Below, in pieces: positions 78 through 13,955 of a stretch of 14,173 bases of DNA; the first letter of the stretch is position 1; each line of letters begins with the position of its first letter. The stretch lies in the NCBI GenBank assembly GCA_045805065.1, contig JBJMMA010000013.1, forward strand, positions 1 to 14,173. The letters are read 5' to 3'. This DNA comes from Bdellovibrionia bacterium (lineage in GTDB: Bacteria; Bdellovibrionota; UBA1018). The position numbers and the translations under genes are program-made. Below the pieces are notes generated by a model. That model had not been told where the DNA came from. It saw nothing but the letters and a program-made list of their open reading frames with translations, and searched no databases.

Positions 78-779
78 ATGTCTACGACGTTTAAGAAAGC
101 CTTTGAAATGAAAAACTTGATGATGACTGCAGCCGTTGGTGCTTTGATGCTTCCATCTCTCGGATGGAGTGCGGCAGATGGTCGCGGCCACAACGGTCCT
201 AACCTTGCGCCGACTTCGATTCCCGTTTCTCTGGATCATGGAATTAGTGCGGGTAAAGTCCAACAAGCAATGACGGTTTGTTTCACAACTGGCGATTCCA
301 AAGCAGGCATTGTTTCAGTACTTCACCGCCTTGCAGACGAAATTACCGGAGGTCATGGGGGCTCGTCTGATTATACGTACTATGGAACCGCTGAGGAATA
401 TGGATCGTCCAAGGCTTTCTATAGCAAAGGTTACATTTACCATGCCTTGGAGACGACAGGTTATGGTTCATTTCGTTTCTATCCTAAACTTGAACTTCAT
501 GACACGGAGGATTCAGGAACAGTGACTCTGCAACTTCCCGCGGTCCTTCCGAGCGTAAGTTACCAATCTATAGTTCAAGACACGGGCTATGACGAGTATG
601 GAAGGGAATCTAAAAGTGATCGGATATTGATGGGCATATCGATTAACTTCGATCCATCTGTCTACGGAACGGCAGTCCGTTTGATCAACTCCAATACTCA
701 TGTAAAGTCTGCAATCACGGTCAACACTGTTGAGTACGTTGAATGCCTCAAGAACGAACTTCAAAGACGGGCAGAGTGA
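78..779 (+). CDS. Secreted hypothetical protein
   Basis: Long ORF (63..779 in the track). SD GAGGAG at 65-70 points to ATG 78; ATG 108 is an alternative. N-terminal signal-peptide-like segment (KNLMMTAAVGALMLPSLGWSA). No recognisable domain. Confidence 0.75.
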   Translation: MSTTFKKAFEMKNLMMTAAVGALMLPSLGWSAADGRGHNGPNLAPTSIPVSLDHGISAGKVQQAMTVCFTTGDSKAGIVSVLHRLADEITGGHGGSSDYTYYGTAEEYGSSKAFYSKGYIYHALETTGYGSFRFYPKLELHDTEDSGTVTLQLPAVLPSVSYQSIVQDTGYDEYGRESKSDRILMGISINFDPSVYGTAVRLINSNTHVKSAITVNTVEYVECLKNELQRRAE

Positions 780-787
780 TATTTAAA

Positions 788-1807
788 ATGTGGAGGGAGA
801 TTCAAGCGGTCTCCCTTCTTTATTTATTTTTCTTTGTGGGAATGGGTCAGGCCTTTGCCTCTCGAGGCGAATGTAGCCTAACACCTCTTTCAAGCTGGAT
901 TAACGTTAAAGCACAGCCACCCGTTGAGCCTGGAAGTATCAAGGCTTTTTCACAATGGGAGCAAAGAGAGTACGACGCGCGAGTCGAATCTTCGCGCGAA
1001 GTCTACCGTGAATATTTTTCTGGTCAATTAGACACTCAATCACTCGGCCAATGTTTGAGTGCACAACCTGATCGTGGGATGTTCTACGCCACTCTTCAGT
1101 CCGTTTTCTTCGATCAAAGCATTGAAAAGCTTCGCTCTTCAAAAAGCCCTGCCATTCGGAATTTCCTGCATTTGATAGATGCAAAGTATCCCGATCTCTC
1201 GCGAGCAATGTTTCGTATCACTGGACACTTTAAAGAGGCTTCGCCAACGGATTTGAAGGGCGGCTTTCACCGCGCAACAGGTTCCATATTTATGGACTTC
1301 GATCGCGTCACGCCGTCGGAATGGCTTGTAATTTTTTGCCATGAGCTTTTGCACAGTTTAGATGAGAAGCTTTGGGAAGCCGTTCGAGCTTACTCGCAGC
1401 CTGAATTAGTGAAATCTTTTGCAGAGTGGTCAAACGACATCGGTGATGTCTCGCAGCTTTCGCGCGATCAAAAGCAGTCTCTGACCAGCTGGATTGATGC
1501 GGGATTGGGACGCGGACTGTGGGCGGAGTATCGTGCCTGGGTTCCAACTTTTCAAATCTATCTGCAAGGAAAGTCAGAAGGCCTCTGGCCTGAGATTGAT
1601 TGGATGGAAACTGTTCTCGAAAGCCGCAAGCAAGGTGAGACCTTCGAGCGTTCTCTCTACAGTTATATCGACGAACATTCGGCTGATCCGACGGATGGGA
1701 TTTTTTCTCGGCCTTTGATTCAAAGCGCTCTCAGGTCGGAGCGGGCTAAAGTTAGAAACGCGAAAGCAGCGCTTCCTGAGCTCGGAAGTTTAGGGTCCGT
1801 TCGGTAA
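788..1807 (+). CDS. Secreted hypothetical protein with HEXXH (HELLH) putative zinc-metallopeptidase motif
   Basis: ATG 788 lies 8 nt after the upstream stop. Hydrophobic signal peptide ending AFA. Contains FCHELLHSLD and a downstream WAEYRAW Glu as candidate third ligand. Confidence 0.7.
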   Translation: MWREIQAVSLLYLFFFVGMGQAFASRGECSLTPLSSWINVKAQPPVEPGSIKAFSQWEQREYDARVESSREVYREYFSGQLDTQSLGQCLSAQPDRGMFYATLQSVFFDQSIEKLRSSKSPAIRNFLHLIDAKYPDLSRAMFRITGHFKEASPTDLKGGFHRATGSIFMDFDRVTPSEWLVIFCHELLHSLDEKLWEAVRAYSQPELVKSFAEWSNDIGDVSQLSRDQKQSLTSWIDAGLGRGLWAEYRAWVPTFQIYLQGKSEGLWPEIDWMETVLESRKQGETFERSLYSYIDEHSADPTDGIFSRPLIQSALRSERAKVRNAKAALPELGSLGSVR

Positions 1808-8244: not shown

Positions 8245-8547
8245 ATGCCAAAAGTAACCTTTTTACCGATGAACGAAACTTACGAAGCAAAAGACGGCGA
8301 AAGCCTTCTGGATGTCGCGATCGCGCATGACGTTCCACTTCAGCATGCTTGCGGCGGCTTCTGTGCTTGCACGACGTGCCACGTTCACGTGAAGTCTGGC
8401 CTCGAAAATCTTTCTCAGTCTGAAGAAGACGAAGAAGAAAGACTCGATCGCGCAACGAACATCACGCTGCAATCTCGCCTCGGCTGCCAAGCCAAGATCC
8501 ATGGCGATGTTACGGTCGAAATCCAAAACATCGGCCACGGACATTAA
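8245..8547 (+). CDS. fdx: ISC-type [2Fe-2S] ferredoxin
   Basis: HACGGFCACTTCHV ... SRLGCQA adrenodoxin-type motif, directly after hscA. Confidence 0.95.
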   Translation: MPKVTFLPMNETYEAKDGESLLDVAIAHDVPLQHACGGFCACTTCHVHVKSGLENLSQSEEDEEERLDRATNITLQSRLGCQAKIHGDVTVEIQNIGHGH

Positions 8548-8707
8548 TCGCTAAAATCAGAACATCTTAAAAATAAAAAGATCGCTTTGGTGTCGGTTCG
8601 GCCATCCTGGCCTCCATTTTTGCCCTGCTTTGCAGGGCATCGCATCCTGCTAAAATGGAACCTCACAAAGCGGTCTTTTTATTTTTAAGATGTTCTGATT
8701 TTACGAT
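8547..8707. repeat. Long palindromic element (MITE/REPIN-like or structured RNA) with branched core
   Basis: 8552-8581 is the perfect 30-bp reverse complement of 8674-8703. Pairing extends inward (8583-8589/8666-8672, 8595-8598/8659-8662) and outward (8547-8550/8704-8707). Internal hairpins at 8600-8612, 8621-8639 and 8642-8650, plus stem 8614-8620/8652-8658. Confidence 0.85.
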
Positions 8708-8816
8708 GGGTATCGCTTGTCGGGTCGCGGTCGTTGCGTTATCAGATTGATTAAGACGATCGTTGCTGAGTGGACTCTTTATCTCTCCTGCCACTCTGCT
8801 TAGAGGTCTTCGGTGA

Positions 8817-8855
8817 GAGGTATGTCTTTTTCAAATTTTGAAAGGATCATACCTT
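8817..8855 (+). promoter_or_regulatory. Hairpin sequestering the SD and start codon of the deaminase gene
   Basis: AGGTATG(8818-8824)/CATACCT(8848-8854) and TTTCAA(8829-8834)/TTGAAA(8838-8843) pair symmetrically. SD AAAGGA (8841-8846) lies in the 3' arm. Confidence 0.45.
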
Positions 8856-9303
8856 GAAAATCTCCGAACCGTTTCTTCTTCAAACTCTTAGTATTGCTCA
8901 AAGTGCTAAAGATCATGGGAATCATCCCTTTGGTGCTTTACTCGTTCATCAAGATAGGGTGATTGCCACTGCTGAAAACTCTGTCGTATCTAATTGCGAC
9001 GTGACGGCTCATGCCGAGATGAATTTAGTCCGACAAGCCTATGGGAAATTTTCCCAGGAAGTTCTCCAAGAGAGCGTTCTTTATTCAAGCACTGAGCCTT
9101 GCGCTATGTGCTGCGGAGCTATCTATTGGGCAGGAGTTGGATCGGTCGTTTTTGGTTGTAGTAACAAAACCCTTTCTGAGATCGCGGGCCGAAGTCTGGA
9201 AATTCCATGTTCTGAAATCTTTCAGCGAGGGAGCAGGTCAGTTTTGGTTTTAGGTCCGGTCCTTGAGGAGCGTCTTAAAGTCATTCATGTCGGGTTTTGG
9301 TAG
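8854..9303 (+). CDS. Nucleoside/nucleobase deaminase (cytidine-deaminase fold, GuaD-like)
   Basis: GNHPFGALLV, TAHAEMN, STEPCAMCCGAIYWAG zinc motifs. TTG start with SD AAAGGA 7 nt upstream. Confidence 0.9.
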   Translation: MKISEPFLLQTLSIAQSAKDHGNHPFGALLVHQDRVIATAENSVVSNCDVTAHAEMNLVRQAYGKFSQEVLQESVLYSSTEPCAMCCGAIYWAGVGSVVFGCSNKTLSEIAGRSLEIPCSEIFQRGSRSVLVLGPVLEERLKVIHVGFW

Positions 9304-9540: not shown

Positions 9541-10317
9541 TTAGCTTCCAAGGTCTAAGAGAGTGACCTTTTGATCCTTCGGAAGTTTCTCGCGGGGGAT
9601 CGTGTCGCCGATCTCTTTTTCGTAATCGGCTAAGGTTAAAACCTCATTGATTTCGATTTCGCTTAAGTCGATATTTTCGAGTTCAGAGTCTAGGCTGTGG
9701 ATGTTTTTCAGGAACAGTTCTTTCGCTTCTTTTGCGGTTTTTGCTCCTACAGCGCATTGGCCGTCCAGGCCACGCTCCTCGATCGTGAACATCACGATGA
9801 AAACAGACTGCTTTTTGCGGCTGGCTTTTAACTGTTTCTCAGCTTCTTTGGATAGTTGAGATATCTGTGCGCGATCCTTCGGATGAAAATTCACGGTGAC
9901 TTGAGTTGGGTTCTCGGAGTGATCAAATGTGATTTTCAATGTTTCAAGTTCAGGTTGAAGGAGTTGCCACACGGAAGGCGCGAAATAGGAAGTTTGTTTG
10001 TAAGTAGGCGGGATGGCGTGAATCTCGATCACGGCCATGTTGCGATGTTCGCTCGCTCCAGGAGTGTATGACTTCATTTCGAATGAGGGATCGACTTTCA
10101 ATAAGAGCGCCGTATATTCGTCTACCTCATCGTTTGGGCAATAGATCAAACTCCGTAGCGTTTCGTTCCCAATGTCAGTTTCCCACGAAGTGGCCTGAAG
10201 CTTTTTGAAACGTTCTTTGATGGAGTTCCAGTCCTCTCGAGGGATCATGGCTAAGCCATAGAGCGTTTGATCGGGGAGAGGGCTTTTGGTCATGGCTAAG
10301 TTTTGCATGCGTCTCAT
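9541..10317 (-). CDS. Hypothetical protein (start uncertain; ATG at 10308 or 10293 also possible)
   Basis: Uninterrupted 258-codon ORF with plausible globular composition, divergent from oppA. No family recognised. Confidence 0.7.
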   Translation of the reverse strand: MRRMQNLAMTKSPLPDQTLYGLAMIPREDWNSIKERFKKLQATSWETDIGNETLRSLIYCPNDEVDEYTALLLKVDPSFEMKSYTPGASEHRNMAVIEIHAIPPTYKQTSYFAPSVWQLLQPELETLKITFDHSENPTQVTVNFHPKDRAQISQLSKEAEKQLKASRKKQSVFIVMFTIEERGLDGQCAVGAKTAKEAKELFLKNIHSLDSELENIDLSEIEINEVLTLADYEKEIGDTIPREKLPKDQKVTLLDLGS

Positions 10318-12931: not shown

Positions 12932-13031
12932 CAATCTACCTATACAAACATAGCTGAATAACTGCGGTCAGAATGTACGCTTCTAATTGCTTTGGGGAAG
13001 CTCTCGTTTCTCGATGAGGGCTAGGGGCAAA

Positions 13032-13955
13032 ATGAAAGACAGTATGACTTACAACTTGAATCATCTTCTGAGCACTCGTCGTGGCATTGTGTGCTTACTC
13101 GCATTGTCTGCTTTTTCTTCGATCCCTTACGCCTTCGCGGGAGCGCAAGATCACTGCGCATCCAATATCATTGAAAAGATCGAGGAACTCTCATCTTCAA
13201 GAGAGCTCGTCCCGACGGATAGAGTTCCGACGATATCCTATAGGGATGTCATTAATGGTCGTATTCCTCAGTTTAAGAAGACGCCCTCTTTCGAATTTCA
13301 AACACCGGATGGCGGTTTTATCACGGTACTGGACGTGAGTTCTTCAAAGGTACGGGATAATCCCAATCTCGGTCGGGCGCTGAAGATATGGAACATCAAA
13401 GTAGAAAGAGAGTTTCGAAAACGACTTGCGAAGTTCAGATCCTATTTCAAGAATGGTGGCAAGCGCAGGCTGAACTCGCTCGATTTTCCTGACAGGACGG
13501 TGGTGATTCTGAAGACGAAAAAGTCGCTGAATGATGGCTCTCCATCGGTAGATTCTGGAATGCGAATTGTGTTTGGGCGCAATTCTGACGAGAAGCTGCC
13601 CTTTCAGCAGGAGTTTTCAGACTACAATCGAGCTGAAGTCGCGGCGGAAATCGGAAGACTCTACGGCCCTGGCGATGGGCCGCTTCTGCTTCACACAGGA
13701 ATGAGAGTGATCGAACAAGCTCCAGAAGTGCGTGAAGTATGGGTGCATACCTCATGGCCTCACGCGAAGCTGTACGGGAGGATGGGCGCGAAAGCAGAAA
13801 CAGCCGATATCGATGTGCGAGATCCGCTGACGCTGCCATATCCTGTGAATGTGATTCTCCGATTTGATCGAGAGAAGGTCCACGGCGTTATTGATAAAAC
13901 AAAGGAACAGATGAGTTCATCCAAAAAACAGATACTGAGCCAGAACGCGAGTTAA
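13032..13955 (+). CDS. Secreted hypothetical protein with a C-terminal GNAT (FeeM/LuxI-like) fold
   Basis: SD AGGGG before ATG 13032. Signal-like RRGIVCLLALSAFSSIPYAFA. C-terminal MRIVFG..EKLPFQQEF..AEIGRL..VWVHTSWPHAKLYGRMG. The CDS is solid; the fold call is tentative. Confidence 0.65.
   Translation: MKDSMTYNLNHLLSTRRGIVCLLALSAFSSIPYAFAGAQDHCASNIIEKIEELSSSRELVPTDRVPTISYRDVINGRIPQFKKTPSFEFQTPDGGFITVLDVSSSKVRDNPNLGRALKIWNIKVEREFRKRLAKFRSYFKNGGKRRLNSLDFPDRTVVILKTKKSLNDGSPSVDSGMRIVFGRNSDEKLPFQQEFSDYNRAEVAAEIGRLYGPGDGPLLLHTGMRVIEQAPEVREVWVHTSWPHAKLYGRMGAKAETADIDVRDPLTLPYPVNVILRFDREKVHGVIDKTKEQMSSSKKQILSQNAS

Follow-up and report, generated by a model that had tools for sequence, protein, structure and literature searches.

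TwoAYGGAY (Rfam RF01731) was described in 2010 and, in the part of that survey used here, is classed as a probable RNA without a cis-regulatory role (Weinberg et al., 2010, PMC2864571). A preprint of 2026 that re-examined it gives, in its available sections, medians of 11-23 copies per Pseudomonas group and up to 202 copies in one strain, together with adjoining arrays of repetitive extragenic palindromes (REPs), variants with extra hairpins, and divergent doublets approximately 250 bp apart, and these sections leave its role between a Csr/Rsm sponge and a mobile-element-like expansion (bioRxiv 10.64898/2026.09.22.753630). In REPINs, the spacer sequence varies while its pairing is kept by compensatory change, according to the portion of the account used here (Bertels and Rainey, 2011, PMC3116915). 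Here we analyze a palindromic element at positions 8547-8707 of a 14,173-nucleotide stretch of DNA (“the window”), which is contig JBJMMA010000013.1 (C13) of the Bdellovibrionia bacterium genome GCA_045805065.1 (G000).

The element is a variant of a known, REPIN-like, TwoAYGGAY-related repeat, of a subtype that is invisible to Rfam, and is no new kind of element. It is probably one copy of a genome-wide REPIN-like palindromic family whose apex mirrors that of TwoAYGGAY, belonging to a rarer, tRNA-linked subtype that is here located behind the isc operon. The original prediction, made from the letters of the window, had considered the family to be without a name, which did not hold because siblings of the element come close to the RF01731 threshold.

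Structure and integrity of the palindrome

The element spans 161 nt and has two nested three-way junctions in its centroid fold. The arms of the inverted repeat (8552-8589 and 8666-8703) are 38 nt long, 97% complementary, and 76 nt apart, with perfect pairing over the outermost 30 nt. An outer extension, in which ATCG (8547-8550) pairs with CGAT (8704-8707) and C8551 is bulged, brings the stem to approximately 42 bp; with these four outer pairs, the element abuts the stop codon of fdx (8545-8547), the last base being common to both. As RNA, the + strand is predicted to fold at -87.5 kcal/mol, compared with -35.3 +/- 3.7 kcal/mol in 200 shuffles, none of which was as good (z = -14.3), and the - strand at -83.8 kcal/mol (z = -12.2). 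Within the core, GGTTC (8595-8599) pairs with GAACC (8658-8662) at the junction, and a stem (P2) encloses a variable hairpin (Hvar) and the second (H2) of two TCC-loop hairpins, the first of which (H1) precedes it. A repeat search found CATCCTG twice in the element, and GTAG is absent. The palindrome, its perfect 30-nt arms, the nested junctions, the side hairpins, the CATCCTG shared by both TCC loops, and the lack of the GTAG tag had all been predicted, and each was recovered at the predicted position. The TA dinucleotides predicted at the ends of the perfect arms are a true feature of the window copy, but only 2 of 45 family members have them.

Contigs in Logan from four public runs reproduce the element with 0 differences and bridge both junctions, although the runs come from a single study and may be the assembly’s own source samples. 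One contig of 250 nt spans 8495-8744, that is, the whole element and both flanks, and further contigs bridge either the left junction (8421-8688 and 8463-8709) or the right junction (8568-8806). A fold-back assembly artefact, which had been raised as a concern, is therefore very unlikely. Among the public runs listed for this stretch of DNA, none is of RNA.

A scan of the whole window against Rfam gave 0 matches at E <= 1. In a terminator scan of the window copy, only H1 with its T-rich tail scored, and this single site compares with 1.0 expected from shuffles; the 42-bp stem itself ends in GATTTTA. Two other candidates were dropped, namely a 12-codon open reading frame (ORF) on the - strand of the element, which has no start codon in the copy at C39:8023, and an integrase att site, an idea raised by direct repeats of tRNA or gene ends at other loci (below), which the window copy does not have.

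A repeat family with a conserved core and drifting arms

The genome of the window contains at least 48 long-stem palindromes, of which 45 were catalogued and 3 were added by a covariance model (R1) built from 37 cores of types I and II (below). The assembly is fragmented (262 contigs), and several copies are located at contig ends. A palindrome scan of G000 returned 54 long inverted repeats, nearly all with two CATCCTG apex hairpins (CAGGATG in the other orientation). Across the family, the apex consists of two same-strand hairpins with C(A/T)TCC(A)TG loops; CATCCTG is the most frequent apex among the TCC/GGA-loop hairpins of G000 (158 of 5,810), and both hairpins lie on one strand in 47 of 50 two-hairpin clusters (51 clusters in total). 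The 45 elements have a median length of 132 nt (range 116-201), with arms of 39 nt (31-57) and a core of 54 nt (44-105), and GC content rises from 0.36 in their arms to 0.58 in their cores. The element is thus not single-copy, as G000 has roughly 50 such repeats.

When the element was compared with its own genome by BLAST, the core was found at C39:35-118 and C39:8080-8177 (80% identity, E ~1e-15) and at C238:8081-8184. The arms, which the original prediction had proposed to search separately, matched nothing, and the C39 and C238 copies each have their own, different long arms. Three types can be distinguished. Types I (~30 copies) and II (~8 copies) both consist of H1 followed by P2 capped by H2. 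Type III, the window subtype, has six copies (C13, C39:1, C39:8023, C175:1, C105:18293, and C238:8066), which share the junctions GTGTCGG on the 5′ side and CCTCA on the 3′ side and carry one or two extra hairpins in P2 before H2, except for the C238 copy, which has none. All six fold on their own to a common plan (basal stem, H1, and P2 enclosing Hvar and H2), and four are located directly behind tRNA genes. P2 covaries between copies (CCACTTT/AAAGTGG, TTCATGTC/GACATGAA, and CTCAAA/TTTGAG), a C-G pair of H1 is T-A in both C39 copies, and Hvar has an unlike sequence in each subtype copy and is missing from the C238 copy.

A search of G000 with R1 recovered 40 type I/II copies, 37 of which are its training sequences and 3 of which are new. 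The C238 copy was matched over the full length of the model (19.8 bits, E 3.7e-4). Since the window copy has no RF01731 match and is matched by R1 only at H1 (see below), its membership rests on its architecture and on a chain that links it to the C238 copy by BLAST and the C238 copy to types I and II by R1.

Pairing in the cores is conserved. In the 37 cores, 88.3% of cells pair, compared with 76.5% in shuffles; both partners have changed in 13 of 23 pairs; the covariation score was reached by 0 of 500 shuffles; and slid registers pair at 28-40%. In 24 matches from ten other genomes, whose alignment was fitted to R1, pairing is 81.1% versus 61.8%, and 17 of 22 pairs changed on both sides. The expected family, with many intergenic copies whose CATCCTG hairpins are conserved and whose stems covary, is thereby borne out. 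The arms behave differently: the left arms of type I copies are 43% identical between copies (median, ungapped, 406 pairs), whereas their cores are 86% identical, and yet the two arms within one copy are 96% self-complementary. For all arms pooled, 1,726 of 1,807 positions are Watson-Crick pairs. This is the REPIN-type pattern of a variable hairpin spacer that is kept paired by compensatory change. Some arms extend into the gene upstream, including tRNA-Gln at C39:8023 (6 nt strictly, or 13-14 nt with one indel), tRNA-Arg at C175 (~10 nt), and an ORF at C91, the final 14 nt of which are taken in by the arm.

In some copies, an extra hairpin is located inside the H2 loop (L287:1519-1614 and L291:1510-1606 in the same-genus genome G001, and C105:18293-18493 in G000), and the family apex appears prone to nested hairpin insertions. 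Additionally, a metagenome-assembled genome (MAG) labelled Bdellovibrio sp. (L045) has a long-arm two-hairpin element behind a stop codon; of all named loci, L045 shows the highest tblastx identity to G000 (88% over 66 aa of a Lon N-terminus, at C246:8094-8291), which gives a weak hint of the lineage.

Relation to TwoAYGGAY, REPs, and Y1 genes

The RF01731 model was compared with 20 loci and matched 9 elements at 26.4-38.9 bits over model positions 1-168, always on the GGA strand, while its gathering cut-off is 43 bits. In the RF01731 consensus, two hairpins with CAUGGAUG apices stand on a long AT-rich basal stem. Two successive hairpins from a common long basal stem are also present here, with a third, variable one lying between them in the window copy. 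The family apex is the mirror image of that of TwoAYGGAY, in that its C(A/T)TCC(A)TG loops on the + strand present GGA when the - strand is read. The AYGGAY motif itself is not present in both loops, because the window loops read CAGGAUG on the - strand, that is, AGGAU without the Y, and the exact complement of the Rfam loop, CATCCATG, occurs in 5 of 86 catalogued loops. At the family level, multiple copies, divergent doublets, and an association with REPs were all found. Each of the six doublets in G000 diverges on the GGA strand, and the starts of its two members are separated by 204-295 bp. The window copy does not form part of a doublet, and no REP adjoins it.

G000 encodes seven proteins matching Y1_Tnp, which are of two kinds. 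The first includes an ORF resembling REP-associated tyrosine transposases (RAYTs) at C111:8410-9063 (- strand), which is flanked by inverted GTAG-type REPs, and a paralogue at C34 with an NCBIfam REP_Tyr_transpos score of 72.2 bits, under the cut-off of 80. The exact REP 10-mer of C111 occurs 39 times in G000, and REPs of this type bound units of ~240 bp, 77-86% alike, with a type I palindrome in the middle. Among 45 elements, REPs are located on both sides of 12, on one side of 5, and on neither side of 28; inverted GTAG REPs at the unit ends are therefore a property of 12 siblings and not of the window copy. The non-autonomous, REPIN-like character that was originally suggested is supported by these REP-bounded members, a RAYT-like gene with the same REP, the patchy copy number, and the filled and empty sites that differ between congeners (below). 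The original suggestion to look for copies beside Y1-HUH/RAYT genes turned up the outer REP, which flanks the RAYT-like ORF at C111, but not the CATCCTG hairpins.

The second kind of Y1 gene is a divergent Y1/IS200-like family of ~200 aa that scores 25-30 bits on Pfam Y1_Tnp (Table 1). It has 14 copies in G001, 19 in G003, and 17 in G036 and occurs in 37 of 61 genomes. Behind the RAYT-like paralogue at C34 lies a tandem hairpin repeat of another kind. A lone GAC(A/T)TCCTGTC hairpin is located in both congeners just upstream of a polymorphic REP-bounded unit (L269:4255-4280 on C10 of G000 and L279:2990-3010 in G001).

Distribution and turnover

R1 has matches in 16 of 61 related genomes; G000 has 40 copies and its congener G001 has 13, and each of the remaining genomes has 1-5. 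The syntenic sites of G001 lack one REP-bounded unit (C10:13813-14047 in G000) and two doublets of C134 and have short hairpins in their place, although the two genomes are only ~80% identical and such filled/empty comparisons are not clean. These missing units answer in part to the empty sites that the original prediction had proposed to look for in relatives. For the window copy, the regions downstream of fdx in G001 and G004 yielded no clean empty site. Eight filled sites are shared by G000 and G001; their cores are 61-93% identical, compared with ~52% for the arms, and arm self-complementarity is 82-100% within each genome (means 0.94 in G000 and 0.92 in G001). Some of the shared sites hold different core subtypes. 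A similarity between the sequence after a stop codon in G001 and the left arm at C10:11001 in G000 was discounted because it was too short.

The signature of the window subtype was found in 3 of 116 genomes of the order (4 copies in G000, 3 in G105, and 1 in G091; 0 for a reversed control), as determined by a pattern search, alignments having shown register shifts between two sub-groups. In G105, tRNA genes (Met and Gln) precede two of the three copies, and at the far end of the tRNA-Gln copy, the 3′ end and trailer of the tRNA recur in inverted orientation with a perfect match over 23 nt, which parallels C39:8023. A metagenome scan for the same signature yielded 53 loci, of which 4 are genuine (L295, L313, L316, and L318), and none of the four has a tRNA within 300 nt. 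L313 and L316 have identical cores, right arms, and downstream flanks with unrelated left sides, which is probably the result of chimeric assembly across the core.

A scan of genome contigs for the H1 17-mer gave at least 121 loci, with ~20 palindromic elements among the matches listed. Most of the listed matches are coding sequences or translation starts, the latter because the 17-mer, once reverse-complemented, looks like a Shine-Dalgarno sequence followed by ATG. In viral contigs, 58 loci were found, none within a palindromic element as judged by eye. The reverse complement of an H1 16-mer forms the Shine-Dalgarno sequence and start of a conserved ORF in several phage contigs (L154, L160, L172, L193, L197, L207, and others). 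Exact-motif scans for this hairpin thus pick up translation starts.

Direct repeats of tRNA or gene ends were observed at L054, L107, L100, and L056. At L054 and L053 (both Bdellovibrionales MAG) and at L107 (Sinimarinibacterium), a duplicated tRNA 3′ fragment lies beside an intact tRNA-Ser and has a two-hairpin core in its T-loop; at L107, the core unit is tandemly repeated along with the tRNA’s terminator. At L100 (Solimonas MAG) and L056 (Rhodanobacter MAG), diverged direct repeats (33-42 bp) of a gene’s first codons enclose related cores of 150-190 bp, which looks as if the element had brought a replacement 5′ end.

Acting strand and interpretation

Two features of the family bear on which strand is folded. 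G·T outnumbers A·C by 43:8 in the core stems and by 27:14 in the arms of the G000 family, and by 36:6 in the set from relatives, where the excess comes mostly from two positions; copies cannot be treated as independent. In 31 of 38 scorable elements, the closest 3′ end of a gene or tRNA has the TCC strand as its sense strand (p 1.2e-4), in a test that required a 3′ end within 400 nt, which 10 of 48 elements did not have, and that took ORFs from a crude longest-ORF heuristic. The four tRNA-linked type III copies and the window copy all follow their upstream gene on the TCC strand. Of 43 catalogued elements, 1 is located between divergent genes and 19 between convergent genes. These results show that the family prefers the 3′ ends of genes and tRNAs. 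Wobble bias and orientation point to the + strand of the window as the folded strand, either as RNA or as single-stranded DNA.

Under the reading that we favor, the family would spread or turn over as non-autonomous DNA handled as a folded single strand, namely the TCC strand. The paired apical hairpins would be the likely protein-recognition module, and the AT-rich arms would be free to drift while remaining self-complementary, which they would do either because the hairpin is under selection or because quasi-palindromes are corrected by template switching. Locally, the practical effect of the element may be to end the isc transcript in a very stable hairpin that serves as a terminator or protects the 3′ end.

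The limits given above for the filled and empty sites, the wobble count in relatives, and the orientation test weigh against this reading, as do several further results. Neither near-identical copy pairs nor target duplications were seen, and hence no transposition event is documented. No family member reaches the RF01731 cut-off, the best score being 38.9 against 43 bits and 0 of 5 whole-genome matches passing, and the window copy is unmatched by that model even at E <= 10. R1 matched the window copy at H1 alone (9.6 bits, E 1.8). In 28 of 45 elements, including the window copy, there is no REP within 110 nt. None of the CATCCTG hairpins lies within 300 nt of any of the seven Y1 genes, and no enzyme is tied to them. 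The co-occurrence of R1 matches with these genes is weak and counted on kin, both for homologues of the second Y1 kind (14 of 16 R1-positive versus 23 of 45 R1-negative genomes) and for the RAYT-like type (8 of 16 versus 9 of 45).

Alternatively, the family could be a selected cis-acting RNA of transcript 3′ ends and not mobile DNA, for example a long terminator or a processing hairpin (an RNase III or tRNA-trailer signal) with apical loops that would be bound by a host factor or would base-pair with Shine-Dalgarno-like sequences. We consider this unlikely, though it would account for the sense-strand position behind gene and tRNA 3′ ends, the rarity of elements between divergent genes compared with convergent ones, the short hairpins of G001 at sites where G000 has elements, the covarying stems, the terminator-like score of H1 with its T-rich tail, and the palindromes of two genera behind tRNA-Gln with an inverted copy of the tRNA 3′ end (23/23 nt in G105). 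Copy number among relatives (40, 13, and 0-5), the core subtypes swapped at shared sites, the nesting of 12 of 45 members in REP-bounded ~240-bp units, and the occurrence of doublets are harder to reconcile with it, and near-perfect stems of 40 bp far exceed the needs of termination. Since GGA in a hairpin loop is a target of CsrA, the element could instead encode a small RNA that titrates Csr/Rsm from the - strand, two apical GGA loops binding a CsrA dimer, as proposed for TwoAYGGAY. Both loops on the - strand are CAGGAUG with GGA at the apex, G000 has one csrA gene (C164:1923-2081, 90.9 bits), RF01731 shares the Rfam clan CL00106 with RsmW, and the sponge proposal is cited in the discussion of the preprint, in its available part (bioRxiv 10.64898/2026.09.22.753630). 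The strand evidence runs the other way, however: because wobble bias and orientation favor the + strand, a sponge is disfavored here. The wobble pairs favor the strand opposite to GGA in all three sets, the GGA strand runs antisense to the closest gene or tRNA upstream in the same 31 of 38 elements, and a - strand RNA would enter the tRNA gene antisense in 4/4 tRNA-linked subtype copies. The C39 copies have no GGA in H2 (+ strand loops CATCACG and CTTCACG), and a consensus scan found no promoter-like site on the - strand of the element. We thus regard a sponge as distinctly improbable.

Two further explanations can be set aside. A miniature inverted-repeat transposable element (MITE) of IS630/Tc1-like type, one of the options first suggested, is not supported, given arms that are not conserved between copies and TA ends in 2 of 45 members. 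An assembly artefact or a chance one-off palindrome has a negligible probability. The fragmentation of the assembly, with several family copies at contig ends, would leave room for an artefact, but the contigs of four runs carry the element and both junctions unchanged, 0 of 200 shuffles fold as well, and related copies occur in G000 and other genomes.

A broader and rather doubtful proposal is that the TwoAYGGAY superfamily as a whole is a mobile module handled as a single strand, with the TCC strand active, which homes to gene and tRNA 3′ ends and uses fold-back or template-switch copying of one arm or of the upstream flank to build or renew its long stem, and that it is not a Csr sponge read from the GGA strand. 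This would explain why arms are unrelated at orthologous sites and still form near-perfect palindromes, why palindromes of two genera contain inverted copies of the tRNA-Gln 3′ end, and why, in other phyla, duplicated 3′ fragments of tRNA-Ser have cores in their T-loop.

Repeats of the TwoAYGGAY type are widespread and abundant. G000 offers a compact test case, with subtypes side by side, one of them linked to tRNA 3′ ends, part of the family nested in RAYT-type REPINs, and turnover between congeners. If the evidence for the opposite strand holds, the Csr-sponge idea would need to be revisited for at least part of the family. For annotation, copies of this family fall under the Rfam cut-off and would be missed.

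Genomic setting of the window copy

The predicted position of the element at the end of the isc operon was confirmed, as a complete operon (Rrf2 regulator, IscS, IscU, IscA, HscB, HscA, and Fdx) lies upstream and unrelated genes lie downstream. The deaminase-like ORF behind the element (Table 1) is followed by an uncharacterised - strand ORF and then by a SBP_bac_5 gene. In the relative G004, a SBP_bac_5 gene directly follows fdx, and in the congener G001, the gene behind fdx is a Y1-transposase-like ORF. Synteny with the relatives breaks between fdx and the deaminase-like ORF, and the window copy is located at this break. Four other ORFs of the window (743-1807, 1812-2213, 9541-10317 on the - strand, and 12987-13955; 133-354 aa) have no Pfam match, and three of the four were also scanned against NCBIfam without a match.

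Table 1. Coordinates of the parts of the window copy, its neighboring genes, and the second kind of Y1 gene (window positions unless a genome is named).
Feature	Position	Strand	Remarks
fdx, 2Fe-2S ferredoxin, last gene of the isc operon	8245-8547	+	Pfam Fer2, E 3.5e-12; ORF list
Left arm, basal stem	8547-8589	+	8547-8550 outer 4 bp, C8551 bulge, 8552-8589 main arm; AT-rich; inverted repeat I1 and fold
5′ junction GTGTCGGTTC	8590-8599	+	Subtype signature; conserved in 5/6 subtype copies, C238 copy departs
Hairpin H1, GGCCA-TCC-TGGCC	8600-8612	+	First family-defining hairpin; aligned by model R1 with family H1
Stem P2, 5′ strand CCATTTT	8614-8620	+	Inverted repeat I4
Extra variable hairpin Hvar, TGCCCTGC-TTT-GCAGGGCA	8621-8639	+	Inverted repeat I7; subtype marker
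Hairpin H2, GCA-TCC-TGC	8642-8650	+	Second family-defining hairpin; position as H2 of types I and II
Stem P2, 3′ strand AAAATGG	8652-8658	+	Repeat search and fold
3′ junction ACCTCAC	8660-8666	+	CCTCA at end in 6/6 subtype copies
Right arm, basal stem	8666-8707	+	8666-8703 plus CGAT 8704-8707
Cytidine/tRNA-adenosine deaminase-like ORF, downstream	8854-9303	+	Pfam dCMP_cyt_deam_1; NCBIfam TadA 72.9 bits, under cut-off 150
Second Y1 kind, loci	G000 C226:9476-10078, C143:7321-7923, C243:85-711, C251:16003-16488; G001 C393:939-1538		G001 locus next to fdx

Comparison with known systems

TwoAYGGAY is similar to the family in its long AT-rich basal stem, its two successive hairpins, and CA(U)GGAUG apices on one strand, as well as in its multiple copies with very uneven copy number, divergent doublets of ~250 bp, REP association, and variants with extra hairpins. 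The family differs in that no G000 copy reaches the Rfam cut-off and most loops are AGGAU and not AYGGAY, in that the window subtype has an extra hairpin in P2, is undetected by RF01731, and is linked to tRNA 3′ ends, and in that the strand evidence in G000 favors the complement of the Rfam strand. With REPINs, the family shares non-autonomous, extragenic palindromic doublets, a variable spacer kept paired, a RAYT-like gene flanked by its REP, and inverted GTAG-type REPs that bound 12 of 45 members. Unlike REPINs, the window copy and 27 others have neither REP nor GTAG, the conserved part is an asymmetric apex and not the ends, and the apical hairpins are direct, not inverted, repeats. The likeness to the sponges CsrB, RsmY, and RsmZ consists of GGA in the - strand hairpin loops and the presence of csrA, whereas each unit has just two sites, no promoter or terminator of its own was found in it, and the strand evidence is opposite. 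MITEs of the IS630/Tc1 type and the attC sites of integrons are likewise palindromic, short, and intergenic, and the perfect arms of the window copy are bounded by TA, but the arms are unlike between copies and TA ends are confined to 2 of 45 members. In integron attC sites, the base is conserved and the apex varies; here, the apex is conserved and the base is variable, the reverse of attC.

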